The notes: generated from the letters alone by a model not told the origin. A DNA stretch of 64,000 bases from Cyanidioschyzon merolae (GCA_000091205.1 AP006497.2), one strand, 5' to 3'. Positions 1 to 40,345 are shown, counted from the stretch's first letter. Made by a program: numbers and translations.

Positions 1-1646
1 GCATTTTGCGCTGCCGTTGCTGCTGCGAGATGACGACGACGACGACGATCCTTCGCTGTTTCCGCACGTCGACGGTGTGGTCGGCTGCGCTCGCGATCTC
101 CCAGGGCCCGCAGCTCGTCCGTATGGGCTGCAGCGTGCGTGCCTGCTTCGATATCTCGGCCCGCGTTCGTTGATTTGCCGTTCATGTGGGCGTCTTGCAT
201 GGAGCGAGTGCGTTCAGCCTCTTTAGTGGCGCTCTTGGGATCACTTTCAGAATGTGCATTCCTGGTGCCGACTGGAACGGCGAGGTCGTCTTCGATCTCA
301 TCATCATCATCATCATCGGCATGGTGGCGCCTAGAAACGCTCTGTTCCGATTCAGAAGAAGCCTCGACGGAGCTTGCAGGACGCACACCGGCTTGTTCGT
401 CTTCTGAACATTGACCCTCGCAGAGCGAGCCGTCCCCGTCAGGCAGCTTTTTTTGTCTCTCGCTGGATGCACGTTGTCGCATCGTCTCGTTGGGGTGCGC
501 GTCTCCATTCACCACGTCGTAGACGTGATCCTCGTCTCCTGTTGCTTCCACCTGACCCATAATCCGGAATACCTGCACTTCTTCGCCTTTGGCAAGACAA
601 AGATCCTTGCGAAAGCGTCGTACGCAATCCCGATGCTTCTTGCTATGCTCATGATTTTCCCACTGGGCAAACGTTTTGAAATACTTCTTACACGCAAGGC
701 ATTGAACACCTTCGATCGTTGGTTGAACCGCATCACTTGCTCCGTGAGGCTGGTTCACATCAGGTGCCTCCTCGCTGATGCCAGCGTACTCCAAATGCTC
801 CAGTAGCTCCTCAAGATTCGGTATATCCTCTTCAAGCTGCGCAGCAAGCCTCGCCGCATGCAGAGACCGAAGGCGTTCCCACTGTTCTCTTTCCTGGACT
901 TGTCGTTCTAGCTTCTCAGCTTCTTTTCGTGCTTCTTCTTCCTTGTGTTTCAATACTCGACGATCCCGCTTTTTCACAAAGGCAACGAGCTCTCGCACGA
1001 GCGCTTGGAACTCTCTGCGAGCACGCTCCCGCTCGCGGCGGTTGTCGCGTTCTATGGCCCGTCGAATCTCCCGGTTCGGCGCCTCGCTCGGGTTCCAGGA
1101 GTCCGCAAACGCGAACGTCTTCGCTGATACAAAGTTCTCCCAGAAGTTATAGAAGCGACGTACACTGGGCCAGTCCGCTGTGGCACTGCCGAACGGGGGC
1201 GGCTGTGCGCCTCCGGCTGCCACCTCTTCTCTCGCAAGCTGCTCGAACGCTGCTCCGTATACGTGATAGAAACCTCGTTCTCCGTCTTCGTAGCCATTAT
1301 AAGCAGAAGATCGGAAATATTCATATATATTGAGTTCTGTCGCCCGGTTCACCGTACGCTCTGTACGAGAAGCGGCACCGGTGTCCGTCCCAGGCGCTTG
1401 AGTCGCCTCCAGCGGATCCCGGCCGCGCAGGATATCCTCTCGGTGGTCATCATACCATTTTCGTTCATGTGGGTCTGAAAGCACTTCGTAGGCTCTCCGA
1501 AGCTCCTTGAAAGCCTCCGCTGCCTCTTCTGGTCGGTCGGGATTCTTGTCAGGGTGCAGGCGAAGCGCTGCTCTGCGAAACGCTCGCGTGATCTCCTCCG
1601 CGGTGGCGTCCCGTGGAACACCAAGAACTTCGTAGTGACAGCGCAT
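1..1646 (-). CDS. J-domain co-chaperone of the DNAJC21/Jjj1 type; partial, 3' end runs off the window
   Basis: My own reverse-strand translation starts at the ATG (complement of 1644-1646). It reads MRCHYEVLGVPRDATAEEITRAFRRAALRLHPDKNPDRPEEAAEAFKELRRAYEVLSDPHERKWYD, a J domain with HPD. Further on come FYNFWENFVSAKTFAFAD and a C2H2 finger, CLACKKYFKTFAQWENHEHSKKH. The frame stays open to base 1, which explains its absence from the ORF track. Confidence 0.85.
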   Translation of the reverse strand, partial: MRCHYEVLGVPRDATAEEITRAFRRAALRLHPDKNPDRPEEAAEAFKELRRAYEVLSDPHERKWYDDHREDILRGRDPLEATQAPGTDTGAASRTERTVNRATELNIYEYFRSSAYNGYEDGERGFYHVYGAAFEQLAREEVAAGGAQPPPFGSATADWPSVRRFYNFWENFVSAKTFAFADSWNPSEAPNREIRRAIERDNRRERERARREFQALVRELVAFVKKRDRRVLKHKEEEARKEAEKLERQVQEREQWERLRSLHAARLAAQLEEDIPNLEELLEHLEYAGISEEAPDVNQPHGASDAVQPTIEGVQCLACKKYFKTFAQWENHEHSKKHRDCVRRFRKDLCLAKGEEVQVFRIMGQVEATGDEDHVYDVVNGDAHPNETMRQRASSERQKKLPDGDGSLCEGQCSEDEQAGVRPASSVEASSESEQSVSRRHHADDDDDDEIEDDLAVPVGTRNAHSESDPKSATKEAERTRSMQDAHMNGKSTNAGRDIEAGTHAAAHTDELRALGDRERSRPHRRRAETAKDRRRRRHLAAATAAQN

Positions 1647-1695
1647 GACAAATGTTTGTGCCGCTTTTGGGGTCTGCCCCTGATCGTTATTAGAA

Positions 1696-2870
1696 CCCCA
1701 CCAGAAGAAACGCATTTTCCCACGGAAGCGGCAGCGAACGCCGTTCAACAGTCGAAAGTCGCCAGCAGTGTACAGTAGTTGCGAATGACCTGCCCTAGAC
1801 GAGACACGTCCGAATGACGTGCAGACGCCTCCCAGTATTTTTGGACCGGCCACCGACTACTGGTTCCATTTTTTTCTCATATAATCTAACCTTGAGATGT
1901 TGCCCTGCAAAAATTTCTCTTGTCATCTCTGGAGGCCTCTTGTCCATCACCGCACGTCTCCTGATATTGATAGTGGCATTAAAGTCTCGATTCACAAACT
2001 CCATGCGTTTCCTGCCATTGGTAGTTGTATTCATTAGTGCGAGTAGTCCGCGAATTTTCGCCTTAGTTTCCATTTGCACTTCCGCCAGCGCTTTGTACTT
2101 TTTTACACCCTCAAGGCTCGGCTGACACTGCTCCATCTTGACCTTCTGGAGCGTACACCACAGCTCGTGGCGTATGTTGGATGTTCGGAACTCATATATC
2201 GGTATTGTGACGAAACATCGTGCGCATTCCTTGTACGCTCATTGCGAGTTGCTGTAAACCGGAAACGAAATTCTCCTCGACAAGCCATAAAAGTGGTGTT
2301 GTGGCTTTCCGCCAGACACGGTGGCTGTTTTTGCCGTGTCCATGGTCCCGCAGGCGTGTCCCGGAGTGCGCTGACTCCATAAAAGCCGCGAGTTCGCGCT
2401 GCTGCCCTGGCATCGGGGTGCTGGCGGCTCCACAGCACAGATACCTCATGATGTGCGGGCGAAGCATGCTGCTTCAGCACCGTAAGAACGATGCGCTCTC
2501 ATGCGCGTTCCCCTATGATCCGAGATGTAATCCACAGAGTGATGCTGGCGGCTATGACCGAGCGTCTTGCATATAGAATGCAAATCTGGGAACTGCGGCC
2601 TAAGGCTCGGAGTTCCAAGTCACGAATGGTCCATATGCTCACGATCGGTACTCGAAGCGAGCGCGCTGGACATTATACACTGCTTTGCTGCACGAGAACA
2701 GTGCTATGCTCGGGGCCGGCTAGAGTACCTTACGAAAAGTCAGCAGGAACGTCGCTTTCAGGTACGGTGCGTGACACGGGCTAGGCGAGAGCGATCCGTT
2801 TGCGAATCATTTCGGAATGCGAATTCGATGTTCATGAGTGTCTTCCCGTAGTAATGCCTCTTTACTTCAG
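1696..2870 (-). pseudogene. TnpB/Fanzor-like nuclease relic, copy A (5'-truncated, C-terminal half best preserved)
   Basis: ORF 1795-2136(-) reads ...GRKRMEFVNRDFNATINIRRRAV... (RuvC-III DxNAAxNI; Asp codon 1984-1986). My translation upstream in the same frame gives AYKECARCFVTIPIYEFRTSNIRHELWCTLQKVKMEQCQ, preceded by an in-frame TGA and a +1 shift relative to copy B. Weaker nucleotide similarity to copy B continues to about 2600, including a degraded GxDxG region. The 3' non-coding tail at 1696-1794 matches the tails of copies B, C and D. Confidence 0.7.
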
Positions 2871-2901
2871 GTTCGAGGCGCGCCTGTTCGAGTTGGTTTA
2901 G

Positions 2902-3675
2902 CGCTTGCGTTCGAGCTTTTTGTCGATTCCATCGGGAAGCAGACCTGCTTTTTATTCTTCCTTGCACTCCGTGATTCAAGCCCATCACAGACGTGTTTTC
3001 TATCGTGAAACGTAATGATCGCTGCACTGGGCGAATCGCTGAAGCGTTCTGCACAATCACGTCGGAGCATATATCGTCGTTTTTCAGCAAGTCTTTCTCC
3101 CTCCGGGCAGGTCGTCGACTACGGGCATTCAGAAGTACGTGCATTTGTCGAAATAGAAAATCCATGCGAAAAGTATGGACATGAAAGTTAGGGATCCCGG
3201 AGGGTCGTCATTGCCAGGCGCCGGAAAAATGGATATATTGCTCTCCTCGTCGACCAGTGAGCGAAGAAGAGCAAGCGAAGATGATGACGAAGAAGAAGAG
3301 AATAGATAGGCGAGAAAAGATGGATGCCCGACGAGACGCTGGCGATTCTTTATTAGCACTGACGGCGCGAGTTCTAGCAATCCTGGCAATCGTGCGTTCA
3401 ACCGTCGACGATGCTCGCATGTAGCTCGTGAACCGAGACTTCACTGTCACCATCAATATCAGACGATGCGCGGTGCAGGAAACGATACCCGAGGAGCTAT
3501 GACGATCCAACTTCGTAGGGCATGCGCTCAGGCTCGACGCGTGCCTGGATACACTGAAGCTGCCAGCAGGTGGCTGGTCAGAAAAAATGGGAGGCTTCTG
3601 CACGCGGGCACCAGTTTAACCTCCATGGGCGCGAAATGCCTATCGTTTTACTGACTACAGACGTTCATTCTCGAG
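2902..3675 (+). mobile_element. Internally deleted (MITE-like) derivative of the Fanzor-like element; 5' module joined directly to the 3' end
   Basis: 2902-3190 aligns with 16058-16329, the 'U' 5' module of copy C. 3190-3400 aligns with the first ~170 bp of the nuclease gene (gggatccNgaggg..., cgacgagacgctggcga). At ~3425 the sequence jumps to the C-terminal end, gtgaaccgagacttcactgtcaccatcaatatcagacgatgcgcg (VNRDFTVTINIRRCA). This is followed by the conserved tail blocks cagcaggtggctggtc and gggaggcttctgcacg. Confidence 0.6.
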
Positions 3676-6918: not shown

Positions 6919-6922
<4 letters not shown>

Positions 6923-6957
<35 letters not shown>

Positions 6958-7554: not shown

Positions 7555-8547
7555 TTAGTGCGTTTGCTGGATCTCCCGTTGAATCTCAGCAAGCGCCAGG
7601 CGCACGTCCCGCTCTGTTACCACCCTGTTTTCTCGTGCACACTCTTGGAAGAGGCTGTACAACCGCCTTTTGGCGGCGCCCCAGGCATATGCGTACTCCA
7701 GCTCCAGCACCCGCTTGCCCTGAATCGAAGGCGGAAACGGAGACATTTCCACGTCGACGGCACCATCCGCAGCCTGTTCCTCATCAAAAAGCCATTCCAG
7801 ATGCGCAGCGTTTCGTTGTGAGCTGCAGGCGTCACATGGACAGACTACCGCCTCCAGTTCCTCCACAGTCACAAATATCGGAGCCATTTGCTCCGACTGC
7901 GTCGACGTGTCGCTGTCAAGTACCGCTTGCGCAATGCAAAGCGGTTTCGACACGCTGCCCGCTGCCTTGGCAGCGGGCACCCATAGCGCCAAGGGGCTGC
8001 AGCTCCGCCGGCACGCAGTGCACACAAGCAGCCCGTCCGTGGAGCCCGTCGTCGCGTCCAGGCCACCGAGGCACTTGACGTGGAACCAGTCCTCACAACC
8101 AATACACTGGTGCATGGTGTCGTCTTTCTCGCCTTGATACTCGGCGTCACATACACAGAACCTGTTTCGAGCGTTGTGATGCTCTCGCAGCCACCACACC
8201 TGAGAGGTCGGCAACGGCGCAGCGGCAACGTCGCTTAGCGCACAGTGCGGAGGCGCACACTGGCATACGAGTCCGTGCTTGTTTCCCAGCGCAAACGTGT
8301 CGTGGTCTGCGTGGCAGGCATCCGCACACGCCTGGCATACGATGGACGGTAAACTGGGGCCCTCGGGCAGCGCTGCCCGCGTCGTGCACGTCCGACAGAC
8401 ACACACTGCTATTGCACGTTCTGCTTGAGAGCGCTCGCGAGCACACTGCCAGTTGTGCTCTGGACACGCAGCACTGACTAGGTCCTCCAAGGTCACCACA
8501 TCCTCTGAGTCTTCGACTGAACCGAGAGCGTGCTCACTAGACCCCAT
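7555..8547 (-). CDS. UBR-box plus PHD-type zinc-finger protein (UBR7-like)
   Basis: ORF 7555-8574(-) starts on TTG; the first ATG gives MGSSEHALG at 8547. A Cys/His-rich UBR-like block reads CVCRTCTTRAA...CQACADACHADHDTFALGNKHGLVCQC. A PHD-like block reads FCVCDAEYQGEKDDTMHQCIGCEDWFHVKCLG. Confidence 0.6.
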   Translation of the reverse strand: MGSSEHALGSVEDSEDVVTLEDLVSAACPEHNWQCARERSQAERAIAVCVCRTCTTRAALPEGPSLPSIVCQACADACHADHDTFALGNKHGLVCQCAPPHCALSDVAAAPLPTSQVWWLREHHNARNRFCVCDAEYQGEKDDTMHQCIGCEDWFHVKCLGGLDATTGSTDGLLVCTACRRSCSPLALWVPAAKAAGSVSKPLCIAQAVLDSDTSTQSEQMAPIFVTVEELEAVVCPCDACSSQRNAAHLEWLFDEEQAADGAVDVEMSPFPPSIQGKRVLELEYAYAWGAAKRRLYSLFQECARENRVVTERDVRLALAEIQREIQQTH

Positions 8548-8575
8548 GCTTCGGGCGCCGTGGCAAAAGTGCAAA

Positions 8576-10919
8576 CCCCTGGAAACAAACGTCTTTCAAA
8601 AGAAAAACGATGCAGCCTGCGGTATACAGAAATGGCGCGCAGCGCGCCCGAGTCAGAACGTCTCCAGCTGACGTGCAGTCGCCTCCCCGTCTTTTTGGAC
8701 CGGCAACCTACTACTGATTCCAACTTTTTTTCATATAATTCCACTTTGGGAGGTTTTCCAACAACGTTCTCTCTTGTCAACTCTGGAGGTCTTTTCTCGA
8801 GCACCGCACATCTCCTTATATTGATGGCGGCGTTAAAGTCTCGGTTCGCAAACTCCATACGTTTCTTGCCATCATTGGTTGTACTTACTGATGCAAGCAA
8901 TCCTCGAACTTTCGCTCTCCTTTCCATTTGCTCTTCCGTCAGCGCTCCGTACTTTTTCGTATCCTCAGGGCTCCGCTAGCACTTTTCCATCTCCACCCTC
9001 TGAAGTGTACACCCCAGTTCATGGTGTGTATACGATGTTCGAAACTCATCCATTGGTATCGTAACGAAACGCCTCGCGCACTCCTTGTACGTTCTTGTCG
9101 TTGGAGCTGGAGTAGTCCCTTTTTGGGTCTTCCAGCGCCCTGCTCCGTACCCTGCTACGAGCCTCTGACTTTTATCCTCCTTCAGGGCACTCAACTGATT
9201 GAAAAAACTCTCGAACGCACGCTGCTTACCACACTATAGATTCATTCGCAAACGAGCCCACCGGGGCTTGGTATACTCCTCCCACAATGCATTCCAATGA
9301 GCAACGCGAACTTCCATGAATTTCCGAAAAGCTTTAAAGTCCGCTCCTCGGCTCGTCACCTCGCTCACAGCTTCCAGGTGCTCGTTCATTCCTGCATTCC
9401 ATTTCTCGATTTTCTTCCTCGTATTCATGATTCCCGATTCTCGATGGTATCTCGCTCTCGAGAACCTCAAAAGACGCATATCTTTCTGATGCAAGGTACC
9501 GTCAGTACCATCTTCCCCACGCTTCGGTGCTGCGATGGTTATGATACTTGTGTTTCCAGCGTCCGCGCCAACGACAAAGTCGTTCTCGTGCATCTTCTGT
9601 GTCGCAGGACCCGCCTTCTTCTCATCTTCATGGTTCTCCGAGGGCGGAACGGGCCGATCCACACTCAACCGCCGATAGTGTATGCACCTGGCTACTCCAT
9701 CGGTTTCGATCATCCCAGTGAATACCTTTTGTCTGCTTACTTTCAGACGTTTGAAATCGAAGATACTCTTCCGGGGCATCTCCCGGTTTTCGTCGGTGAA
9801 CTCCTCCCTGCGAACATCGAACTCCGGACAGATCTCCTTCAAGATGCCATGAAGGATTCTCGAGTCCATAGTCACAAAATGTGACTTGATATTGCAAATT
9901 GGAACCATGTTGAAGCGCTTCCCCATTAGGGCCGACTTCCGCCTCTCCCACTCTTTATTTGTCTCCTCACTCAGCTTCCTCTCTGCCTGGCGTTCGAGTT
10001 CTCGGTCCAGAACCACAGAATAGCGCAGGACGAGGCGATAGTATCTTTCCTTAACTTTTTTTCAACTCTGATATCTTTTCTGTTGGATTCGCCAGCTCCA
10101 AGACTGCACGGTGCTCTTGTATTACGGCACGGATGACGGAGTCCTCATTCATGCTCTGGTTTGACGCCTTCTTGTCGACGAATTCGATCTCATCTTCATG
10201 CTTACGATCGTTCGTGGTGCCATTGAGGTCCGCCTATACTCCATTGCGAGAGATGCGCGGGTAGCGTGCAAACACGGCACGTATCATGAAACGTTCGAGG
10301 TTCATTGTCAAATGGTTCTTCAGATTCGTGAGGTATTTCATGGCCCCATAGTCCTAAATATCCCGGTCACCCCTATACCGAGTACCCTCGAAGCGGAATT
10401 CCGGGAAGGTTTCGTGGAGGACATGCACTGCTCATTTTCCCTCCGCGCTTTCGCTGTACCAAGCATCAGGTGACGAATAAACGTCGTGTCGAAGAATTCT
10501 TCCGGAATCTCGACTGTTTCCATGTGCGTCACGTCGCGATACATCTCCTTCACCAAATGCATCAGTCCTATAGAGTCCATACGAACCCTCGTGAAGTACG
10601 AATCAACATAATTTCTGATGGCCTCTCGCAGATTTTGCTTGTGCGGATCCTGAATATGGCCTAGATGGCATGATTTCTTTACAATCTTGAAGTAGGGTCG
10701 TCTTTCGAGTTGCATTTGGCGCCGGGCCCCCCCTTGTTTTGCGTCATCGTCGTGTCTTGTTTCTCTTCGGTCGGTATTCTTTTTCGCTTTTTCCGCTAGC
10801 CGGCGACGCTGCCCCTCCAGGATCCTCCACTTCCTTTTCCATAACTTTCCTCTTTTATTTTTTTGTAACGCACTTTGAACGCTTCTGCTATAAACCGCGA
10901 AAAAAACACGAGAATACAC
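8576..10919 (-). pseudogene. TnpB/Fanzor-like nuclease relic, copy B (full length, disrupted)
   Basis: Four collinear ORF pieces are present.
- 10338-10919: basic N-terminus KRGKLWKRKWR.
- 9234-10016: ...[18 protein letters not shown], RuvC-I GxDxG.
- 8976-9194: ...RRFVTIPMDEFRTSYTHHE.
- 8493-8927: ...KKRMEFANRDFNAAINIRRC, with the RuvC-III Asp codon at 8838-8840.
An in-frame TAG at 8976-8978 is CAG (Gln) in copies A, C and D. Further stops and shifts lie between 10016 and 10340. The tail ends ...cgtttgtttccagggg at 8576. Confidence 0.75.
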
Positions 10920-11650
10920 TTGTTTGAGGTTTGAGACACAAATGAACGGAAAAACTGTACTTTGCTACAACTTTAACGCAAGTACAACTTTTATATTAGA
11001 GCAGCACGCTATTGATCAGGATCGCGTTTCCCTTCAGCTGCGGGATGCGCGTCGTGACTCGAAAACTAACAGATCTCCCTGGTGCGCAAATCGATAGCGC
11101 TATGTAGAACAAAGAACAGAGACTCACGACTAGCGAGCAACGATACAGCAATTTCTCTCCCGTTCTACGATAAACGTTGAAAACGGGGAAAAGGTTCCCA
11201 TATTCTGAAGAGTCCTCCCTCTAGGCGAAAAGTCCCGCGAGCCGGACGAGTCTCCCGGACTCGTGCTTCGTGCTCCACCCAGTAGCGGGCGCTGTGGCGA
11301 GACCTGAGCAGTTCGTCCGCAACGCGGTTCATTCTGGGACTAGATGCGGGATGCTGTGTTTGGTCGTCGCCCTGATCGCAGTAGACTCCTAATATATCGG
11401 TTCGCGCTTTCGCAGGCAGTAGTTCTGTCTGTTTAGCCTACAGGCTCCCAGAATTATTCTGGACTCCAACGCTGTATCAGGTAAAGCGTTCCTCAATCCG
11501 TCGCCCTCAGTGGTATGGCAACGCTGTTCTATCTCCATGATGCATCCGTCCCAGTGGTATAGGCGCTAAGGCGGGTGCCCAAAGCAGGCACTCGGTCGCA
11601 CTACAGAACGCACAAAACGATCTGTACATCCGAAAGGAAGTATAAGGAAC
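10920..11650 (-). repeat. 'V' upstream module attached to copy B (homologous to 36290-37062 of copy D)
   Basis: The reverse complement of 10920-11650 aligns by eye with 36290-37062. Matching pairs include tttttcgcggtttaYAScagaagcgttcaaa, gagccggacgagtNtc, gacctgagcagNtcgtccgca, and caggcactcgg...gtaYatccga. Confidence 0.6.
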
Positions 11651-11897
11651 GGAGCATGGAGGTAGAGTGCATCATGATGGACACTTTTTCGATCAGCTAT
11701 ACCCATCCATCTCGCTATCTGGAATCCAAGTACAATGTAAACGTTTTGTCATTGGAGAGAAATCAGCGGCAACAGCAAATGCAGCGGATTTTGTTCCATG
11801 TGAAAACTTCTCACACAGGCGAGCGTGCCGCGACTCTGTGTGCTTGCTACCTGCGCGCGGTGAAACTTTCGTCGTTCCACGCTTTACGTCCGAGTTT

Positions 11898-12185
11898 CAT
11901 AACCCATACTTCTTCTCGGATGTACTGGCGTTTCAGACGTACTATCGGGCGCCGAGTGCCTGCCCGTGAACATCCGCCTCAATAGCGCTTGTAGCGCCGG
12001 TGCTGTCGTAGCACAGAAACAGAACGGCGTTGCCGTACCGCAGACGGCGTCTGCTCGAGGCATGCTTCACCTGACGTAGAACTGGGTCTCGTTGTCAGGT
12101 TGTGCTCGGACAGCCTGCGGATGCAAAACTTGCTTTCGCTGCACAACACATTGGAGAAACTTGGCTGTTACGATGAATCCTGGGA
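11898..12185 (+). repeat. Second, inverted partial copy of the V module (homologous to 22052-22338)
   Basis: 11915-12170 aligns with 22069-22323 at a constant offset of ~10154. Shared strings include ctcggatNtNctgg, gaacggcgttgccgta, gacgtagaaNNgggtctcg and ctggagaaacttggctgtta. Its first ~165 bp form an inverted repeat with 11479-11641. Confidence 0.6.
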
Positions 12186-12701
12186 GCCGCCTCTCTCCTG
12201 CGTGATCGTACATGGAAAGCGTCGCCCTCGGTTGGCGACTCGGGTCTGTGCTTGGCACCCACCAGTGAGTAGGTACGCGTAACACTGGTCCCGTGTGCGC
12301 ATCTGGTTTGCTGGACCTTCCACCTAGAAGGTAGAGTATGAGTTCGCTGACCACTGGTGAGTGCTGGAGCTCAGTTACGGGACCATCAGTTGCTAGCACT
12401 ACACTCAAAGTAAGTGGCTGGCCTTCATTTACCACAGTGATTCCCAGATGTTAATGTCTCTCAAAGAGATAGCTGCGTTCTTTTTTTCCAGCACAGGCAC
12501 AGAAAGCTTAAGTGTGCTGGCGTCTCTGGCATCCCGATTCCGCTGCACCGAACGCCGCGATCCTTCGAAGCCCTGCATCGCGAGCACGCTGCCGCCCATC
12601 GTCGATGATCACGAAACGATTTTTCCGTTCGTGTTGCATGAACGTTTGCGTTCTTACTTGATTGCAACTCGCAGTTTCATTGTTGTGTATAACGCTGGAT
12701 A

Positions 12702-15403: not shown

Positions 15404-16057
15404 GTAGCATATACATTCATTTCTGAACAGTGCAAGGAAGACTGTATTCCTCGTTTAGGACAGTCATACCACCGTACTCAGATGGTTGGCAAACACTGTA
15501 AGAAAAATGTAGATGCACTCCGTGCCAGAGATCGATATTCATTGAGGTCGCTTGCAGTCGATCTTAGAAAACGATCCGTTGATCACCATTTTCGGAAAGC
15601 AACAGCGACGATAATAGCCGCCACAGGCGTCACCGTTTCTCAACAGCTTATTCTTATGATCCCGAAAACATTGGGATACAATCTCAAAAAAAGTCATCGT
15701 TCAAGCAAAGGCATCTTCCATCCAAATCGCAACGACAGAGTCCCTGGAACGTCACGATCGATAGGAACCACTGGATCGTCAGTTTGTTTGTTCAGTTGAT
15801 GAAAATTGCTTCAGAAGGCACGCTCGGAGCGTCAATGGGTATTCGAGGTGAAGGGCGCCCGTTGTACGTTCGATCGAGCTCGAAGAGAACGACGAAATCA
15901 TCATCTATTATAGCTTTAGAAGATTTATTTGGCGGCCTCAGTTTCACTTGTAGAAAAGACACATGCAACAGCACCAACCAATTTGTCCAAGCATTGAAGA
16001 CTTTTACCCGACGTCTGGCGACGTCCTTCTATTGGGCAACGTGGCATATCACCATAT

Positions 16058-18612
16058 CGCTTGCGTTCGAGCTTTTTGCCGATTCTATCGGGGTAGGGGT
16101 GATTTTTGTTCGTCTGTGCGCTCCGTGGTTCAAGCGCATTGTAGGAGTGTTTTCTATCGTGAAACGTGATGATCGCTCCCCCGGGCGAAACGCTGAGCGT
16201 TCATCACTCGGTAACACATCGGGGTACATGCCATTTATCTTGCGAAAGCCACGCTCCCTCCGAGAAAGCCCTCATCTAAGGGCAAAAAACGTGCGGTCGT
16301 TTTGACGAAATAAAACTCCAAAACAAAGCTATGCACGTGCAAGTCGGGGATCCTGAAGGGCCCTTGCCGCCGGCTGGCAGAAAAAAACGAAAAATTCTGC
16401 CAATGGAATAGGAACAAAACAGAACGAAGAAGCAAAAGGGCGAGGCCCGACGTCAAAAGCTGCGCGAAAGACGACTATGCGACGAGACGCTGGCGAAAGC
16501 CTGTCTTGGTAACCATATCAAGGATTCGGACAAGCAAACATGCAACAAGTCATCCGAGACCGTGTCGAGTCGCACTCCATGAGTATTGTAAAGGATTCTT
16601 CAGGACTAATGCCTTTGACGAAGGAGATGAATCGCGGCGTGACGGGCATCAAAACAGTCGAGGTTCCGGGAGAATTTTTCAACACCATCGTTATGCATCA
16701 CCTGATGCTTGGCACAGGGGAAACGTCGAGGAGAAAGGAGCGAATGCATGCCCTCCACAAAATTACCCCGAATACCCTTTTCATCGGTAATCGATACCGG
16801 CGTGACTCGGATATTTACACGTACGGGGCGAAAAAGTACCTCACGAACCTAAAGAACCATATGAACATGAACCTCACACGTTTCATGATACGTTCCGTCT
16901 TCGCGCTGGACCCGTGCCTCTTTCGCAAAGCGATAGACGGGTTACCATCAATGGCATCTCGAACGATAGTAAGAACGAACAGGAGATCGAACTCGTCGAC
17001 AAGAAGACCTCGCACAGGAGCATGAATGAGGCTTCTGTCATCCGCGCGGCTATTCAAGAGCACCGTGCACTCTTGGGGCTCGTTGACCCAGCAGAACAGG
17101 TATCAGAGATGAAAAAGATGGAAAAAGAAAGATGTTACCCACACTTCCTGCGCTATTTCGTGTATTTGGACCAAGAACTCGAACGCAAGGCTGGGATGGA
17201 GCAGGGTGTGCGGAAAAATGCAGAGTCGGTAGAACGGAAGGCTGCGCTTGCGGGTACGCGCTTCGAAGTCGTTCGGTTATGCGAGATCAAGTCGCACTTT
17301 GTGACAATCGACTCCAGAGTCCTTTACGGAATACTGAAGGAGATAAGTTCGGGGCTCGATGTACGCAACAAGGAGTTCACCGGTGAAAATCGGGACACGT
17401 ACTGGACGCATGTCTTCGACGTCAAGCGTCTCAATACGAGCCAGAAAAGGTATTCAGAGGTGTCATCGAAACTAAATGAGTAGCCATGTGTGCACACGAT
17501 CGGCGCTTGAAGGCAGATCGTCATATCGTGCCTTCGGCTTCGCCCGTGACGAAGCATGAAGATGTGAAGCAGGCGGATCCCGCGACGCAGGAGGTTCAGG
17601 ATACTGGCTTTGGCGGCGGCGCGGACCCTGGGATGACGAATATCATAACGATCGCAGCACCGAAGCGTGCGGGAGATGGTGCTGATGGTAACCTGCGTCA
17701 GATAGAAATGCGTCTCTTGAGGTTCTCGAGACCGAGATACTACCGAGAATCCGGTTCAATGAATGCGAGGAAGAAAATCGAGACATGGAATGCAGGAGTC
17801 AAGGATCAGCTGGAAGCTATGAGCGAGGTGACGATCCGACATGCGGACTTTCAAGATCTGCCAGAGTTCATGGACACTCAAGCTGCTCATGTCGAGGAGC
17901 TGCGGAAAGAGTATCGAAAACAAAGGTGCGCTCGTCAGCGTTTGAATCTGTACAGAGAGAACCAGCGTGCATACGCCAACGATTTCAATCCGTTGAGCGC
18001 CTTGAAGGAGGACGAGAGTCAGAGGCTGGTAGAAGCGTATGGGGCAGCGCGCTAGCTGGCCCGAAAAGGGACTACGCCAGCTCCAACGACAAGAACACTC
18101 AAAGAGCGTACACGGCGTTTTGTTACGATACCAATAGGTGAGTTCCGAACATCGTATACACACCATGAAGTGAGGTGCGTACTTCAGAGGGTCGAGATGG
18201 AAACGTGCCAGCGGAGCCAAGAGGATATAAAAAAGTACAGACCGCTGACGGAGGAGCAAATGGGAAGGAGGGCAAAAGTTCGCGGACTCCTTGCATTCGT
18301 GAGTACAACCAATGATGGCAAGAAACGCATGGAGTTTGTGAACCGAGACTTTAACGCCGCAATCAACATCAGAAGATGTGCGCAGCTGGAGAAAAGACCT
18401 CCAGAGTTGACACGAGAGAGAATTTTGTCAGACGACCTCTCAAGGTCGAAGTATACGAGAAAAAGTTGAAACCAGTAGCAGGTGGCCGGTCGAGAAAGTC
18501 GGGAAGGCGTCTGTACGTCGGCGTATAGGCATCCGATCTGCGGCGCGCCGCTCGCCACTCCTGTACCCCTAGCGACAGCGTTTTTCTTGTGAAAGGCGTT
18601 TGTTTCCAGGGG
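16058..18612 (+). mobile_element. Fanzor/TnpB-like element copy C ('U' 5' module + disrupted nuclease gene + conserved 3' tail)
   Basis: The U module 16058-16329 matches 2902-3190. The gene pieces are 16540-17025, 16914-17483, 17486-18055 (...GGGADPGMTNIITIAAP; Asp codon 17624-17626) and 18170-18469 (...MEFVNRDFNAAINIRRCA; Asp codon 18347-18349).
Lesions:
- frame changes near 16535 and 16925;
- TGG to TAG at 18053-18055, where copy B keeps Trp;
- a +2 bp 'ga' insertion near 18417, which breaks the C-terminal ...TRENFVRRPLKVEVYEKKLKPVAGGRS.
The tail ends ...gaaaggcgtttgtttccagggg at 18612. Confidence 0.75.
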
Positions 18613-18652
18613 TGCCCAGGGGGTCGCTTTAGCCTAGCTTTTGGTCTCGAAA

Positions 18653-20743
18653 ATGCCTCAATGGGACAAGCGCGCCAGACAGCGAAGAAGCAACCAGTCT
18701 CGTTGGCGTCGGGAACCATGGGAGACGCAGGAAGTCGCTTCACCGTTAAGTTGGCTCTGCTTGCCTGCGCGTGTGCTAGCGTGCTTTGGCTCACCTCCGA
18801 GCGAAGAGCTCGCTGAGTCGGCGCAGCCGCCCGACGACATTGTGCCTTGGGAGGACTCCGAAACCGCCGACTCGTCTTCTCAAAGCAGTTTTGGTGGCTC
18901 TGATGAAGGTGCGCGCCAAGAGCTTGCGTGCCGTACGCGAGCGGAGAAAGTGGACGGCAACGGCGCTGGCACCGAGAACGACCAGGATGAGCAACTATCC
19001 GTCGAGCTGGACGCGCTTCGTCGACGTCGCTCCTTCTCGGCCACGAGCTTCCACTTGCCAGCTGTATCCCGTCCAACAGCGGCAGGTAGCATTGTCGACA
19101 TACCGTCAGAGCGTCCACAGACCGCGCAACGCAGAGAACGTCAACGTATCGTGGGCAAGTTGGCGCTCGTTGGGCTCGGTACTCAGCTTCTGCTGCTCAG
19201 CTTGAAGTTGTACAGATTTGAATCGCTCTCACCAGCGTATCTCGTTTTTTCCGTCGCGTTTTTCGTGTTCAGCGGAGGACTTGCTTTCCTGAGTCTCCAC
19301 TACTTTAAAATGGGGCGCCTGCCACCTTTTCTGGATGTGGCTGCAAAACGGCGAGAAGCGTCGCACAACCGTTCGTGTGGGACAAGCCCGGCCCGCTCCA
19401 ACACCGACTCGACGATGCGTACGCTGAGCGGAGCGGGTTCGGCGTTCAGTACTCCAACGGCGGACAGATCGCCATGCACGCCCAAGTCTCGAATTGCCTC
19501 GCGCTCTCGAGAGTACGCTCAAAGCTTCCAAGAAAAAGGCGATGCGCAGGTCGTCAGAACGTCATTTGACTCGCGATCAAACCGACGAATCTTCTCAGTG
19601 CTGGGTGTCGAGAGCTCGCAGTCATTTTGCGAGCAACAGGGGTGCAGTACAAGAATGCCGAGCAAGAGTCGACCGGCAGCGATACGAATCGACGTTACCA
19701 GCGAGCGTACCGCGGCAACATCAGCGAGCGATGACGCAGTTAGTGCGGACAACATCGCCGTGTCCGTCAGAGAGCCGTCCACGCTCTCTGATGCCGATGC
19801 TGATCATACAGAGCATGGTATCGAGAAGCGTCGCGGCACCTTCCGCGAAAAGCCCGGCCAGCGAGGCACGCCCGGTGTTCGCGCTGCTGTTGCCGAAACC
19901 CAGCGACGACATGTGCAGCGGGCGACAGAAACTCGTAGCGCCGGCGCACCGGCCTTGCCGGTACCAGACGCTTCGGACCAGATGAGAGCTGGCGCATCCT
20001 TAGAGCAACGGCGTCGATCCCGCGAGGCATCCTCTCTGTCAGACGACGGAACGCCTCCCGAAGTGCAAATTGAGTCACTGCGTATTGTAGAGAGTTGGGA
20101 GAAGATGCGTATAACAGCAAAGAAGGAAATCTTAGCGGAAGATTTTTGCGAGGGAATGCTCAGTCTATTGAGCGTCATCGATGCATTGGGTCCCGCTTTT
20201 CGAATCATCAAAATCGACATTCGAAATCATGTGAATGGGATCCACCGCAGCTGCACGAAACACAACTGCCGCACCCTGCAGCGCCTCATTGATGCAGAGT
20301 CGAATCGGGTATCACGCTGGTTGAATCCATCGGGCATTGGCGATGGTACGGAACATGTGCTCTGGATGAAACGGGCCATGCAGTTTGTGTACATGCTGTT
20401 GTACATGTTTTTGGATGGCATCGATTTAGACCGGTGTGTATACCATGCATATCGCATGACGCTGCGAGCCTGTCACCCGTACATTGTCCGGAAAGTAGCG
20501 GAGAACCTGCACCGCTTCGTCCCTACCAGAGCTGGCTTTTTGCGCAGAATCCACGCAGATGAGGACTTTGTTTTAACGCAAATGCGGCGATTCTTGAAGG
20601 CAATCGAACCGCGTCTTGATATTATCGTTGAGGTATTCAACGCAAACCAGCTGGAACCGCACTGTCGATTCTCATGCGCAGAATTGCGCCGGCTGGCACA
20701 GCACTGTGCAAAATATGATATCGACGAGGATATGACGCAGTGA
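18653..20743 (+). CDS. Membrane-anchored protein with C-terminal glycolipid-transfer-protein (GLTP) domain
   Basis: ORF 18641-20743 starts on TTG; the first ATG is at 18653 (MPQWDK). Predicted TM segments are LALVGLGTQLLLLSLKL and YLVFSVAFFVFSGGLAFLSL. The GLTP-like C-terminus reads LSLLSVIDALGPAFRIIKIDIRNHVNGI...GTEHVLWMKRAMQFVYMLLYMFL...YHAYRMTLRACHPYIVRKVAENLHRFVPTRAGFL. Confidence 0.7.
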   Translation: MPQWDKRARQRRSNQSRWRREPWETQEVASPLSWLCLPARVLACFGSPPSEELAESAQPPDDIVPWEDSETADSSSQSSFGGSDEGARQELACRTRAEKVDGNGAGTENDQDEQLSVELDALRRRRSFSATSFHLPAVSRPTAAGSIVDIPSERPQTAQRRERQRIVGKLALVGLGTQLLLLSLKLYRFESLSPAYLVFSVAFFVFSGGLAFLSLHYFKMGRLPPFLDVAAKRREASHNRSCGTSPARSNTDSTMRTLSGAGSAFSTPTADRSPCTPKSRIASRSREYAQSFQEKGDAQVVRTSFDSRSNRRIFSVLGVESSQSFCEQQGCSTRMPSKSRPAAIRIDVTSERTAATSASDDAVSADNIAVSVREPSTLSDADADHTEHGIEKRRGTFREKPGQRGTPGVRAAVAETQRRHVQRATETRSAGAPALPVPDASDQMRAGASLEQRRRSREASSLSDDGTPPEVQIESLRIVESWEKMRITAKKEILAEDFCEGMLSLLSVIDALGPAFRIIKIDIRNHVNGIHRSCTKHNCRTLQRLIDAESNRVSRWLNPSGIGDGTEHVLWMKRAMQFVYMLLYMFLDGIDLDRCVYHAYRMTLRACHPYIVRKVAENLHRFVPTRAGFLRRIHADEDFVLTQMRRFLKAIEPRLDIIVEVFNANQLEPHCRFSCAELRRLAQHCAKYDIDEDMTQ

Positions 20744-34540: not shown

Positions 34541-35429
34541 AGTGCGCTGCGTCAAGCACCGAGGACACGAGCTCGTTACCCGACTCAACCGGTTGCAAAC
34601 GGTACCCTTGGACGCTCGACGAGGGCGATGGCGAGGTGTGCGCCTCCGTGTACCGCCCGCAAGTTCATGGAGCACAGCTGCAACGGGTCAAGTTTCGGTA
34701 TCACGTTGCTGGAACAGAAGCTCGTTTCACGCGCGTCAGGCGTGCGTATGTGCATGCTCGGGTATCGTATCTGGGAAGAGCAGGAGGAGGCGCGGCGGCT
34801 CACCCGGACTTGTTGTTGGGGCCGGTTTGCGGCTGCGTTTGCTGTCCGTAGCATCGACGCGCGGGCTGTTGACGAAGGCATACAATGTTGCTGATCGAAT
34901 GCGCGCATGCGGTGGTGACTTTCAATGCAACAGCAGCAGCAGCAGCAGCAGCGAGCGGTAGCCAGCATCGGGAACCTCCATCAAACAGGATCACGATGTC
35001 TCTGAAGCGCACGCTGCTAAGGCGCCTCGATGAGCGCATTAGGAACGTGTGTGAGTGCATGTGGTGGCGATGGTGGTGGCGGTGTGTAGGTACACGGCGT
35101 CGCGTGTTTTCCTACACATCCGGTGCGAGTGTGCGCTTGCGCACAAGGACCACGAGCGCTGTTGCAAGGCACATTCTAGTCGATTGAAAATGGGACACGA
35201 AACGACGCGCTCTGATTCTGTGTTGAGATGTTGTCAGAGCTAGTGTTTCATTGGACAGCCTGGACATCAGAAATGTAGCGTGCTTGGATTACGGATGCTT
35301 AGATTTTTTTAGGATTGTCGATCGTGGTTTCGGAGTGGCTCCTGCGACGCCATGCCGCTGGTTTTCGTGATGCCGCTACGATCCGCATGATTCGTGACGC
35401 TTTTGCGGACGATTCCGGAAATAAATGAT

Positions 35430-37062
35430 ACCATGATTCCAGTTCACATGCACAAGCTTCTATGCTCCTCCGTTCCTTGCATATAGCATGCTTGGATCAT
35501 GCATTGTTTACGTTTTTGATCTCTCCGTTTCAACGCAACTCGCGCCGCTGAATCGACGACGAAAAGAGCTCGACGAAACCCCGTGAAGACCGCGTCACAA
35601 GATCGTACCACAAATTCACTAAACTTTTCATTCCAAATAATAAGTTCAATTCAAAAGATAAATCCTCCTCTAATTGCGGTCATCAACGAAGCTGCATTCG
35701 ACAACAGCGGCGGCATGATGCCTGTCACAGGAGGTGCTCCCCGAGGCTTCCGCTTTCTCTGTGAGGAAAATGGTAATGGACCCGGCCATGGGTCATCACA
35801 GGGATCGCTACTGATAGAGCGCGCGTCGACATATAAAGCGCGAAGCGAGCGTAGACGGATCGAAAGTTTTGGAGTTGATCTCCAGCCTGGGTTGCCGTCT
35901 TGGTGCCTGATTCATCATGGACGGTAACATCGCGTCCCAAACAGCCTCGATCTTGGAAAGCAGCGTGCGCTTGCACGACCAGCGGACAGGGTACTCACCG
36001 AGGATCTCGCGCAGAGGAAACCCGTAATCGTCGGGTACAGCACAACGCGCTGCATCAAAGGGAGGCATCTTGCAGCGCCCTGCGTACCGGTCAAGCGGTT
36101 GTACTGAGCGGTGAAGCGAGCGCTGACGAGCGATAAGCGGCGGTTCCTCAGCAGCAGCAGCAGCGATACTGACTTTTTCGATGACAAAACGTTTACATGG
36201 GCTATGGATCTCAGATTGCGGGATGGATATCGGTAATTGAACATGCGCCCATCATGAAGCATCTACATGAAAGATCCATCACCTGTACTTGCTCTCGGAT
36301 ATACTGGTCGTTTCGTGCGTTCTAGCGTGTGCCGAGTGCCTGTTTGGAGCACCCGCCATGCGCTTAGACCGGTGGGGCTGATGCATCACAGCGGCAAAAC
36401 AGCTTTGCCCTGCCAGCGAGGGCGTCGACTCGAGGTGTGATTCACTATTCACAGGATCGGAATTGGTGATCATTTTGGGAGCCTGCAAGCTGCGCAGACA
36501 GACGTACTTTATGCAGCGGCGCCAAGCGATATTCGAGAAGTCCACGACGACCAGGGCGACGCCTAGACGCAGGCTATGCGCTCCTAGTCCCAGAATAAAC
36601 TGCGATGCGGACGAGCTGCTCAGGTCTCACGAAACCACCTGCAACTGGGGCGAGCACGAAGCGCGAGCCCGAGACACTCGTCCGGCTCTCAGGACCTTCC
36701 GCCTAGAGGATAAACTTTAGACAGTACGGAAACCTCTCCCGCTTTTAACTTTATATCGTTGCTAGTTAGGAGTGAGCCTCCGTTCTTTGTTCCGTATTGC
36801 GCGCTCGACACGCCCACCTCCATACTTGGCTGGCTGGCATGAAACACGACGTGCATCTCGCCGATGAAGAGAAACGCGATCGCGATCATTCGTTGACTTG
36901 GTGCTCTAACAGACAAGTTGCGTTTGCGCAAAAGTCCTAGAAAAGTATAGTTTTCATTTCAATCGCGTTTCAACCCTCAGTTTAGTGTACGCAGGTGATT
37001 TTTCGCGGTTTACACCAGAAGCGTTCAAAATGGGTTCATGTTCAAGAAAATATAGGAAAGTG
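35430..37062 (+). repeat. 'V' upstream module attached to copy D (longest version in the window)
   Basis: 35430-36340 aligns with 63110-64000 in the same orientation and with 59950-60670 in the opposite orientation. 36290-37062 aligns with the reverse complement of 10920-11650. It contains an ORF-like block on the minus strand (35808-36068) that is conserved in the other copies. Confidence 0.6.
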
Positions 37063-39341
37063 ATGCACGTGCAAGTCGGGGATCCTGAAGGGCCCTTGCC
37101 GCCGGCTGGCGGAAAAAAACGAAAAACTTTGCCAATGGAATAGGAACAAAACAGAACGAAGAAGCAAAAGGGCGAGGCCCGACGTCAAAAGCTGCGCGAA
37201 AGACGACTATGCGACGAGACGCTGGCGAAAGCCTGTCTTGGTAACCATATCAAGGATTCGGACGAGCAAACATGCAACAAGTCATCCGAGACCGTGTCGA
37301 GTCGTACTCCATGAGTATTGTAAAGGATTCTTCAGGACTAATGCACTTGACGAAGGAGATGAATCGCGGCGTGACGGGCATCAAAACAGTCGAGGTTCCG
37401 GGAGAATTTTTCAACATCATCGTTATGCATCACCTGATGCTCGGCACAGGGGAAACGTCGAGGAGAAAGGAGCGAATGCATGCCCTCCACAAAATTACCC
37501 CGAATACCCTTTTCATCGGTACTCGATACCGGCGTGACTCGGATATTTACACGTACGGGGCGAAAAAGTACCTCACGAACCTAAAGAACCATATGAACAT
37601 GAACCTCACACGTTTCATGATACGTTCCGTCTTTGCGCTGGACCCGTGCCTCTTTCGCAAAGCGATAGACGGGTCACCATCAATGGCATCTCGAACGATA
37701 GTAAGAACGAACAGGAGATCGAACTCGTCGACAAGAAGACCTCGCACAGGAGCATGAATGAGGCTTCTGTCATCCGCGCGGCTATTCAAGAGCACCGTGC
37801 ACTCTTGGGGCTCGTTGACCCAGCAGAACAGGTATCAGAGGTGGAAAAAGATGGAAAAAGAAAGATGTTACCCACACGTCCTGCGCTATTTCGTGTATTT
37901 GGACCAAGAACTCGAACGCAAGGCTGGGATGGAGCAGGGTGTGGGGAAAAATGCAGAGTCGGTAGAACGGAAGGCTGCGCTTGCGGGTACGCGCTTCGAA
38001 GTCGTTCGGTTATGCGAGATCAAGTCGCACTTTGTGACAATCGACTCCAGAGTCCTTTACGGAATACTGAAGGAGATAAGTTCGGGGCTCGATGTACGCA
38101 ACAAGGAGTTCACCGGTGAAAATCGGGACACGTACTGGACGCATGTCTTCGACGGCAAGCGTCTCAATACGAGCCAGAAAAGGTATTCAGAGGTGTCATC
38201 GAAACTGAATGAGTAGCCATGTGTGTACACGATCGGCGCTTGAAGGCAGATCGTCATATCGTGCCTTCGGCTTCGCCCGTGACGAAGCATGAAGATGAGA
38301 AGCAGGCGGATCCCGCGACGCAGGAGGTTCAGGATACTGGCTTTGGCGGCGGCGCGGACCCTGCGATAACGAAGATCATAACGATCGCAGCACCGAAGCG
38401 TGCGGGAGATGGTGCTGATGGTAACCTGCGTCAGATAGACATGCGTCTCTTGAGGTTCTCGAGACCGAGATACTACCGAGAATCCGGTACAATGAATGCG
38501 AGGAAGAAAATCGAGACATGGAATGCAGGAGTCAAGGATCAGCTGGAAGCTATGAGCAAGGTGACGATCCGACATGCGGACTTTCAAGATCTGCCAGAGT
38601 TCATGGACACTCAAGCTGCTCATGTCGAGGAGCTGCGGAAAGAGTATCGAAAACAAAGGTGCGCTCGTCAGCGTTTGAATCTGTACAGAGAGAACCAGCG
38701 TGCATACGCCAACGATTTCAATCCGTTGAGCGCCTTGAAGGAGGACGAGCGTCAGAGGCTGGTAGAAGCGTATGGGGCAGGGCGCTAGCTGGCCCGAAAA
38801 GGGACTACGCCAGCTCCAACGACAAGAACACTCAAAGAGTGTACACGGCGTTTTGTTACGATACCAATAGGTGAGTTCCGAACATCGTATACACACCATG
38901 AAGTGAGGTGCGTACTTCAGAGGGTCGAGATGGAAACGTGCCAGCGGAGCCAAGAGGATATAAAAAAGTACAGACCGCTGACGGAGGAGCAAATGGGAAG
39001 GAGGGCAAAAGTTCGCGGACTCCTTGCATTCGTGAGTACAACCAGTGATGGCAAGAAACGCATGGAGTTTGTGAACCGAGACTTTAACGCCGCAATCAAC
39101 ATCAGAAGATGTGCGCAGCTGGAGAAAAGACCTCCAGAGTTGACACGAGAGAGAATTTTGTCAGACGACCTCTCAAGGTCGAAGTATACAAGAAAAAGTT
39201 GAAACCAGTAGCAGGTGGCCGGTCCGAAGAAAACTGGGACGCGTCTGCACCTCAGTTCGGGACGTCTTGTCAAGGGCGCTGTCGTCGCCACGTCTGTATA
39301 CTGGCGGCGGCGACGTTTGTTTTTCGAGAAGCGTTCGCTGG
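37063..39341 (+). pseudogene. TnpB/Fanzor-like nuclease relic, copy D (near-identical core to copy C)
   Basis: The pieces are 37272-37757, 37646-38119/37758-38216, 38219-38788 (GGGADPAITKIITIAAP) and 38903-39202 (MEFVNRDFNAAINIRRCA). It shares with copy C the TAG at 38786-38788 and the +2 bp shift near 39150. It also has an in-frame TAG after MHVQVGDPEGPLPPAGGKKRKTLPME. The 3' tail 39225-39341 is diverged from C and closer to A. Confidence 0.75.
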
Positions 39342-39388
39342 TATCAGCCGTGGTCGCGCGTGTTTATTCGGTCTTCGACAGGCGCGAC

Positions 39389-40345
39389 ATGTTCCTAACC
39401 CCAGTTGGCACGTCCTGCACTGGAACGCTTCGACGTCCGATAATTGGGAGGCAGCGTTTACAAACCGCCAAGCTCGGGCGTCTGGTGGCTCGCACCGCGG
39501 TCCCCGACTCCCTTGAAGTTGCGGTAGCGCAGGCGCAGGAGGCTACTCGGCGTGCCCTGGCAAACTCCTTGCGTCAGCTGCGACTCGAACTCGATACGTC
39601 TCTCGGGGACGAGACCTACTCTCGATTGAAGCAAACGTTGCCGTTCTTGCGGCTGCTTTGTTTGGCCCTGCTTCAAAGTGACGAGTCGTTGAGGTCGAGT
39701 CTACGAGTCCTTCTTCCAGACGAGGGTGCGGCGGCAGCTCTGCGTAACGACTGGAAGTCCGAAGATCAACTATCTTCAGTTCCGGTATTTTCAATAGAGA
39801 GTAGAGTGCGGCGACGTGAGCTGGTCGCCGAAGCACGTGAACATACCGTGACCTGTCTGGCGGTGACGCCGCGCGCTACCGAAGTCGACGCGCTCCAGGA
39901 ACTGGCTCGTGCTGCGAACGAGCACGATTCACTGCGTTTGATTGTACTCAATCCAGAGTTGATCGATATGGGTGCAACTGGGCTGGGACTCGCAGCGCGT
40001 CGCCTGCGCGATCGCCTCCTGAACGGTCTCGAGCCTGTCTATTATCTGCGCACAGCGCCGTGGGGTCTCGTGCTACGTGTTTATCCCGACGCGTGGAGCG
40101 TCTGGATTGATCGTGAGCGGTACCTGGCCGTGAAAGGAGAGCATGAAGCAGAAAATGCTGCCAATGACGACGACGCCTTCGTTTGCATTGCAGACGACTG
40201 GCAGGAGCAGCCCACTGGTGATGCGCTCGCAGACCTGGTGGAGTCATTCATGAATCCAGAGCAGGCGTTAAGTGGTCCGTTGGCAGGGCTTATGCAGTCG
40301 TGGCGGAGTCTACAACGTTTTCTTCGGGCGCTTCGCCAAACTTAG
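39389..40345 (+). CDS. DUF1995-like protein (probable plastid protein)
   Basis: ORF 39215-40345 starts on GTG inside the element tail; I place the start at the in-frame ATG 39389 (MFLTPVG...). The layout resembles DUF1995: AVAQAQEATRRALANSLRQLRLELD..., VLLPDEGAAAALRNDW, LIVLNPELIDMGATGLGLAARRLRD, YYLRTAPWGLVLRVYPDAWSVW. Confidence 0.5.
   Translation: MFLTPVGTSCTGTLRRPIIGRQRLQTAKLGRLVARTAVPDSLEVAVAQAQEATRRALANSLRQLRLELDTSLGDETYSRLKQTLPFLRLLCLALLQSDESLRSSLRVLLPDEGAAAALRNDWKSEDQLSSVPVFSIESRVRRRELVAEAREHTVTCLAVTPRATEVDALQELARAANEHDSLRLIVLNPELIDMGATGLGLAARRLRDRLLNGLEPVYYLRTAPWGLVLRVYPDAWSVWIDRERYLAVKGEHEAENAANDDDAFVCIADDWQEQPTGDALADLVESFMNPEQALSGPLAGLMQSWRSLQRFLRALRQT

Follow-up and report, generated by a model that had tools for sequence, protein, structure and literature searches.

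Sense-oriented placement of Fanzor1 transposon copies just upstream of host start codons in a cyanidiophyte red alga

The 64,000-nucleotide stretch of DNA described here (the window) is eukaryotic, intron-poor and about 55% G+C, and carries about 17 genes, among them nuclear genes for the plastid or mitochondrial proteins PetC (Rieske protein), an Omp85/Sam50-type protein and a DUF1995 protein. Self-comparison of the window reveals one repeat family, present as four copies (A to D) and an internally deleted fragment (E). What a preliminary description of this DNA called nuclease copies is a family of Fanzor1 transposons, old and mostly pseudogenised, in a red alga of the cyanidiophytes (Cyanidioschyzon/Cyanidiococcus-like). 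Each of the four copies ends shortly before a co-oriented gene's start codon, and over the family as a whole such placement departs from random, has a direction and involves only the 3′ end of the element. The kind of element (Fanzor1, CMe-1A-like, of Tc1/mariner ancestry) is known. That its copies regularly stand in sense orientation shortly before host start codons seems not to have been described, and searches of the literature gave no account of where Fanzor elements lie with respect to such codons. The placement bears on what Fanzor nucleases do for their transposons in eukaryotes, and on RNA-guided nucleases in mobile elements outside bacteria.

Copies, host genes and junctions in the window

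The 3′ terminus of all four window copies is ...GAAAGGCGTT. The boundary is sharp: among 46-47 independent copies, conservation is high up to ...CGTTCGACTTTCGAAAGGCGTT and then drops abruptly, ceasing right after ...CGAAAGGCGTT. The Fanzor stop codon is found about 58 nt before the terminus, followed by a tail of about 60 nt with a terminal hairpin. No obvious terminator or poly(A) signal is present in this tail and the spacer that follows it.

Copy A is a 3′ fragment of a Fanzor1 pseudogene of about 500 nt (1737..2240, minus strand), in which the RuvC-III region and tail are kept. It is delimited by a blastn match to copy C (1816-2222) and by a hidden Markov model (HMM) of the tail (1738-1902), and its final GGCGTT ends at 1737. 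The host is a DnaJ/zuotin-like gene (DNAJC21/ZUO1-type; 1..1646, minus strand) that runs off the window; its ATG at 1646 is supported by a Pfam DnaJ domain at residues 4-66, followed by ZUO1-like ZHD and zf-C2H2_jaz domains, and the codon score agrees. The spacer (1647..1736, minus strand) is 90 nt, or 72 nt if the extra CGCTGCCGCTTCCGTGGG is counted as element; an in-frame ATG lies within it at 1716, upstream of the assigned start, and is probably unused. Fragment E (2899..3480, plus strand) lies head-to-head with copy A and consists of a piece of DDE_3 transposase gene (2900-3121) and a Fanzor RuvC-III piece (3370-3480); no terminal tail was detected in it with the tail HMM.

Copy B is a full-length Fanzor1 pseudogene of about 3.2 kb (8575..11765, minus strand) with its 5′ end near 11765. 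Its GGCGTT ends at 8588 and is followed by a subgroup-specific segment of 13 nt down to 8575. The host, a PHD-finger (UBR7-like) gene (7555..8547, minus strand; called from the Pfam PHD domain, Met positions and codon score), has its ATG at 8547, 40 nt from the GGCGTT (spacer 8548..8587, minus strand) or 27 nt from 8575. Copy C (15408..18613, plus strand) comprises a DDE_3 remnant (15408-16167), a Fanzor pseudogene (~16330-18525) and the tail, with GGCGTT ending at 18600 and an extension to 18613. The 13 additional nt past GGCGTT, TGTTTCCAGGGGT, are shared by copies B and C and the metagenome locus L025. A gene for a GLTP-domain protein (18653..20743, plus strand; Pfam GLTP) begins 52 nt beyond the GGCGTT of copy C (spacer 18601..18652, plus strand), or 39 nt beyond 18613, with its ATG at 18653. 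Copy D, again a full-length pseudogene of about 3.2 kb (36172..39335, plus strand), has its GGCGTT ending at 39335, 53 nt (spacer 39336..39388, plus strand) before the ATG at 39389 of the DUF1995 gene (39389..40345, plus strand), whose Pfam domain begins at residue 39. The spacers of copies B, C and D are the host leader and, by analogy with the ωRNA of the Fanzor1 protein SpuFz1, the putative guide position.

Overall the window junctions place the host ATG 40-90 nt from the terminus, or 27-72 nt when the subgroup-specific segment is counted as element. The preliminary description had already recognized four copies of one family in these orientations, and both self-comparison and reading of the junctions bear this out. 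Its distances for copies B (28 nt) and C (40 nt) agree with the present values of 27 and 39 nt, that for copy D is close (47 versus 53 nt), and that for copy A was too short (49 versus 72 or 90 nt). The host genes do not start much farther downstream: the DnaJ and DUF1995 domains begin at residues 4 and 39, and coding signal begins before the next in-frame Met, which occurs at codon 220 (GLTP), 145 (PHD/UBR7-like) and 194 (DUF1995). In the GLTP gene, codon 1 is the sole in-frame Met before codon 220, with coding signal by codon 51. The tail HMM detects no further tails in the window, and all four precede co-oriented genes.

Copies C and D share 98% identity across a 2.2-kb stretch of their bodies (16325-18519 versus 37057-39253); their last ~100 nt are about 65% identical, their 5′ parts differ, and they stand before different hosts 20.7 kb apart. 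This pattern looks like gene conversion between dispersed copies and not recent transposition.

Identity, ancestry and anatomy of the element

The RuvC motifs GADPGNT, DEFRTS and NRDFNAAINIR can be read in conceptual translations of copies B and C and of intact relatives, and are split in the order seen in TnpB (D...E...D). In a 68-sequence alignment D421, E592, D659 and N661 are invariant or nearly so. When a profile of the family was compared with the PDB, the sole match at E < 0.01 was SpuFz1 (8GKH, E=0.004, two colinear stretches); a single-sequence search of the PDB with the nuclease gave no match. The nuclease has no direct match in the local copy of Pfam, a copy that does not contain PF26935/DUF8286, and PF07282 (OrfB_Zn_ribbon/Cas12f1-like_TNB) is found in more distant relatives of the family. 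An AlphaFold model of one relative, P0109 (41-44% identical to the window family), made with the 68-sequence alignment, has a predicted local distance difference test (pLDDT) score of 87.6. Its top Foldseek matches are the three solved Fanzor1 structures SpuFz, GtFz and PpFz (E 6e-17 to 4e-15, template modelling score 0.53-0.72), with Cas12f and Fanzor2 far weaker. Judged by the model of this relative, the window family would have the Fanzor1 fold. An earlier model from 27 close sequences (pLDDT 44) was unusable, a problem resolved by the deeper alignment.

Database searches yield more than 160 relatives, and a scan of the collection more than 385 encoding stretches, nearly all from a few metagenomes. 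The copies are broken by frameshifts and stops at copy-specific places, and since these places differ among copies they are pseudogenes, not intron-containing genes. All four window copies belong to this class. Long intact Fanzor open reading frames (ORFs) are found only at the loci L002 (3261-5683, 778 stop-free codons) and L014 (~830-3112, 759 codons).

The ancestor of the family was a Tc1/mariner-type element in which a gene for a DDE_3 transposase preceded that for Fanzor. In the relatives at loci L092-L099 a DDE_3 (Tc1/mariner-IS630) gene lies directly upstream of the Fanzor gene on the same strand. Remnants of DDE_3 are detected by tblastn in copy C, just upstream of the Fanzor ORF, in fragment E, and at several other loci; copies B and D have none. 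Read from these remnants, copy C keeps the presumed ancestral transposase-plus-Fanzor layout that is intact in the distant relatives. In one distant relative the two genes are bounded by 30-nt terminal inverted repeats (TIRs) ending in TA. No TIR was detected either in copy C or in the consensus of the family, whose terminus is rarely followed by A. Because neither TIR nor TA duplication was found in it, the cyanidiophyte family is regarded as a derived, probably non-autonomous form. The 35%-identical relative at L099, with its adjacent DDE_3 gene, sits on a 560-kb contig (Ga0620986_00154) that is giant-virus-like, amid densely packed RNA-polymerase subunit genes (Rpb2, Rpb6, RPB9, RNA_pol_N).

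About 250 nt upstream of the Fanzor ATG is common to most copies and includes a conserved TATATAA about 60 nt before the ATG. Each element thus has a predicted TATA-containing promoter of its own, oriented like the Fanzor and host genes. Farther 5′ the copies carry alternative segments: a ~650-nt variant, a DDE_3 remnant, or a separate repeat of about 650 nt (window 11885-12536 and 22039-22338). This last repeat also occurs at L013, L020, L031, L036, L067, L070 and L002, often adjoins the 5′ side of Fanzor elements, and in some loci stands in place of the 5′ segment that is otherwise usual; the TE-N-type elements noted in Cyanidioschyzon merolae may be its counterpart. An internal inverted repeat is found at 11477-11643 and 11906-12074.

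The window family fits the published description of CMe-1A, a Fanzor1 element of C. merolae with about 150 copies of ~3 kb and ~80% identity, no TIR or target-site duplication (TSD), a composite 5′ part and some intact members (PMC3627910, Bao & Jurka 2013), the likeness being one of descriptive features only. Both have a red-algal host of the same group, a length of ~3 kb, a single Fanzor1 ORF and many ~80%-identical copies, without TIRs or definable TSDs, with 5′ parts that are alternative or shared with other repeats, and with few intact copies. Unlike the present analysis, the CMe-1A paper (PMC3627910) describes no relation to host genes.

SpuFz1 (PDB 8GKH, 9CEU) is the best structural match and likewise has a Tc1/mariner-type association, although sequence identity is only ~13-15% and no counterpart of the clear 30-nt inverted repeats of SpuFz1 was found in the window family. 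Gene-proximal placement is not reported for SpuFz1. Its ωRNA is known, whereas that of the window family is putative.

Position of the 3′ end relative to host genes

With the tail HMM, 74 complete 3′ termini were detected in the window and 80 metagenome loci of the same alga; clustered by flanking sequence, they represent 47 independent insertion sites. Gene calls relied on a score of codon usage for which long ORFs from this DNA were the training set, and the null was drawn from these sequences by taking positions at random between genes, in random orientation. Under this null a co-oriented ATG is expected within 100 nt at 3.0% of positions and within 160 nt at 4.5%. At 28 of the 47 sites (~60%) the next gene downstream lies on the same strand and begins no more than 160 nt away (range 2-160, median ~40 nt; binomial p=8e-26), and at 23 (49%) it begins within 100 nt (p=9e-23). 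For the window alone, four of four within 100 nt has a probability of ~8e-7. Neighbours within 500 nt of the terminus are co-oriented in 31 cases and opposite in 8 (p=3e-4); short co-oriented ORFs not covered by the gene calls (RPL37a and a 163-aa ORF) occur at no fewer than two more sites. The 5′ end of the element behaves differently, with the nearest upstream gene at a median of 733 nt and divergent in 16 of 23 cases.

The simplest account of such a pattern is chance in a compact genome: the DNA is gene-dense, any intergenic insertion will lie near some gene, four of four is a small sample, and orientation alone gives p=0.06 for four copies. Set against the null, however, the 49-60% observed over 47 sites and the distance of the 5′ end from genes effectively refute chance, to which virtually no probability can be given. 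The earlier judgement that random intergenic insertion is unlikely therefore holds, and the bias in distance and orientation extends from the window to the family.

Several of the hosts are genes whose start codons can be fixed firmly. The host ATG is 15 nt from the terminus in KTI12 and in a DEAD-box helicase, 18 nt in an E2 enzyme, 29 nt in CysRS, ~40 nt in RPL37a, 158 nt in alpha-tubulin and 248 nt in RPS4. Pfam anchors the N-termini of tubulin, RPS4, RPL37a, E2, KTI12, CysRS, DEAD-box, DnaJ and DUF1995 hosts, and as many housekeeping N-termini align to position 1-2 of the Pfam model, their ATGs are immovable. Since E2, KTI12, CysRS, the DEAD-box helicase and RPL37a start 15-40 nt past the element end, their promoter and leader must lie in the element or be read through from it; these essential ORFs start too near the terminus for an independent promoter to fit. 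Several percent of the genes of the alga, and 4 of ~17 in the window, may run on transposon-derived leaders or promoters. With tubulin, ribosomal-protein and tRNA-synthetase genes among the hosts, the putative guide-producing end sits sense-wise before the starts of such genes.

A host promoter upstream of the element could still drive these genes if the element were spliced out as an intron in the 5′ untranslated region (UTR). Some subgroups do end in a pyrimidine-rich, splice-acceptor-like ...TTTCCAG before G, but others lack a terminal AG and there is no GT donor at the 5′ end. Cyanidiophyte genomes have very few introns, and a 5′-UTR intron is a highly improbable explanation.

Origin of the placement

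The best reading, in which we place slightly more belief than disbelief, is biased integration at gene 5′ leaders combined with a sense-orientation filter. Integration would be biased to the transcription-start or 5′-leader region of genes. Only sense insertions would survive there, an antisense insertion at -40 being expected to cut the gene off from transcription. Transcription leaving the element would still reach the host ORF, from a start in the tail or by read-through from the Fanzor promoter, and the host leader, probably with the core promoter, would now be element-derived. The preliminary description had offered targeted integration, retention of copies that supply a promoter or 5′ UTR, and read-through of the tail into the host mRNA. 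Something akin to one or other of the latter two is almost forced by ATGs 15-40 nt from the end, and the first is favoured over pure retention, though sequence alone does not separate the three.

Pure retention, or exaptation, would have insertions fall at random, with copies elsewhere deleted and those whose tail became a needed promoter or leader kept. All copies are ancient and mostly dead, hosts whose ATG lies 15-40 nt beyond the element must rely on its sequence, copy A is reduced to its gene-proximal 500 nt, and the intact copies are not gene-adjacent, all of which would suit such a history. Gene-adjacent bodies are, however, near full length (median span 2.7 kb) where the tail alone would suffice, and solo tails are rare. 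An enrichment of more than 10-fold would require the loss of more than 95% of neutral copies with no fragments left. Orthologous copies, 98-100% identical, show no extra conservation of the tail, a comparison with little power to test constraint. The favoured zone makes up less than 5% of the available intergenic space. The near-full length of old copies, the rarity of solo tails and a neutral intergenic space more than 20 times the favoured zone together favour targeting over retention as the sole cause, and retention alone is possible but rather doubtful. On either view, of targeting or of retention at gene 5′ ends, essential-gene leaders would be matched by the putative guides.

Orthologous loci have been found for copy D. 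The window DUF1995 protein has 65% identity with one from Cyanidiococcus yangmingshanensis, and locus L089 of that alga (JANCYV010000004.1:168288-181268) is syntenic with window 33782-43953, with the gene order Rbc25, DUF1995, GATase, 380-aa gene, NDUS4. The gap between Rbc25 and DUF1995 is 660 nt and contains no Fanzor element. As the Cyanidiococcus ortholog is without the element, the insertion of copy D is derived. The comparison with relatives proposed earlier thus gave one locus without the insertion in Cyanidiococcus and no empty allele among metagenome contigs. An identical 318-aa DUF1995 product occurs on 31 metagenome blocks, and the element tail lies upstream in 8 of the 8 contigs fetched. 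Given the 65% identity, the synteny and these environmental contigs, the alga was taken to be an uncultured cyanidiophyte distinct from C. merolae 10D. No record matched the UBR7-like host protein. Most of the DUF1995 metagenome contigs (L081-L088) break 200-390 nt upstream, at a point within the Fanzor tail. The repetitive nature of the family breaks up assemblies, so that short-read surveys will under-report these junctions.

The layout of the tail invites comparison with RNA-guided systems. In the SpuFz1 ωRNA a variable extension of 14-15 nt is the guide, and 'ghost' elements share only the right-end region (PMC10432273, Saito et al. 2023); the same tail layout is found here. In the window family the last ~110 nt, from GGAAGCGTCTGCACG... 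to GGCGTT, likewise end unrelated ghost repeats with no other Fanzor likeness. Such ghosts were observed at L034 (1174-1393), L061 (1117-1336), L004 (~1020) and L077 (~4103), each with another Fanzor copy some 700-1000 nt downstream of it. Any ωRNA produced would have as its guide the first 14-15 nt beyond the terminus; this stretch belongs to the leader of the host gene and in the closest cases takes in the start codon. By analogy with SpuFz1 it is a reasonable remark that the guide may be the leader of the host gene. Bacterial TnpB of IS200/IS605 elements is also a RuvC nuclease, its guide being taken from DNA just beyond the right end where that of the window family is putative, and it favours transposon retention or homing. 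It differs in its association with Y1 TnpA, in contrast to the DDE_3 ancestry and eukaryotic host here. For bacterial TnpB systems we know of no link of strand or position to host start codons.

A terminal hairpin is detected in almost all copies, one subfamily having another sequence (CGTTTTTC-TTTT-GAAAGGCG), and hairpins are present in 79.5% of cells compared with 41-54% in slid controls. Single-sequence folds of the tails are weakly more stable than shuffles (mean z -0.9); RNAalifold gave no consensus structure for the 47 tails. In the flanks of the 47 sites, subgroups at unrelated loci share a further 9-16 nt past GGCGTT, with likeness fading with distance. Examples are TGTTTCCAGGGGT (in the window at 8575-8587 and 18601-18613), CGCTAGCAGCGG, GRTGGTGTGTGC and CGGATCGAC. 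Positions +2 to +13 past the terminus are A-poor and G/T-rich overall, and extra genomic matches to the shared 9-mers occur at about chance level. The shared 9-16 nt may be terminal element bases or, more speculatively, the footprint of guide-directed copying into similar leaders.

That footprint would be expected under RNA-guided ectopic homing, in which the guide is the host leader, Fanzor cuts look-alike leaders, and one-ended repair, primed by microhomology, copies the element in from its 3′ side. If true, homing would account jointly for the sense orientation, the position before the ATG, the exact 3′ and ragged 5′ ends, and the 9-16 nt common to copies at unrelated loci. The lack of TIR or TSD and the decay of that likeness with distance also speak for it, and the layout equals a SpuFz1 scaffold with its 14-15 nt guide. 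Leaders of essential genes as targets would also disfavour repair-generated resistant alleles, as with homing endonucleases. The shared nucleotides may, however, simply be subfamily-specific element ends, the 5′ junction has no motif resembling a target-adjacent motif (TAM), the ωRNA is putative here, with tail hairpins that lack significant covariation and match no Rfam family, and no empty target sites were seen. Homing is an unlikely origin on this balance.

Several observations weigh against biased integration with a sense filter, or limit how far it can be pressed. The null model rests on the ORF and codon-score gene calls made here. About one quarter of the sites face the 3′ end of a convergent gene, as do the two intact-ORF copies (L002 at 479 nt and L014 at 686 nt), which have no co-oriented start adjacent; these two cases give a hint that active copies live elsewhere. 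Nearest-copy identity is 80-89%, so that all copies are old and insertion preference is not cleanly separable from long-term filtering. The 5′ junction yielded no definable TSD, TIR, TAM or target motif. Covariation in hand-drawn tail hairpins is not above shuffled controls, and comparison of the tail with Rfam matched no family. When empty alleles were sought with the exact DUF1995 protein, each contig had the tail or broke inside it. Finally, that host transcription starts in the tail or runs through from the Fanzor promoter is something we infer.

Biased integration near gene starts has precedents among eukaryotic transposons. Ty3 and TRE5-A of Dictyostelium target genes transcribed by RNA polymerase III, and Tf1 of S. 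pombe, P elements and Mutator target RNA polymerase II promoters. Position-specific elements of this sort insert in a narrow zone upstream of genes, with a fixed orientation in the case of TRE5-A, and are retrotransposons or DNA transposons with known tethering or chromatin cues. To our knowledge none of these five is a Fanzor element, and most lack strict sense orientation directly before the start codon. C. merolae is a genetically tractable relative of the alga.

One further repeat in the window is unrelated to the Fanzor family. A (near-)perfect tandem triplication of a 98-nt unit occupies 60964-61257, just upstream of an ORF at 61687-62574.

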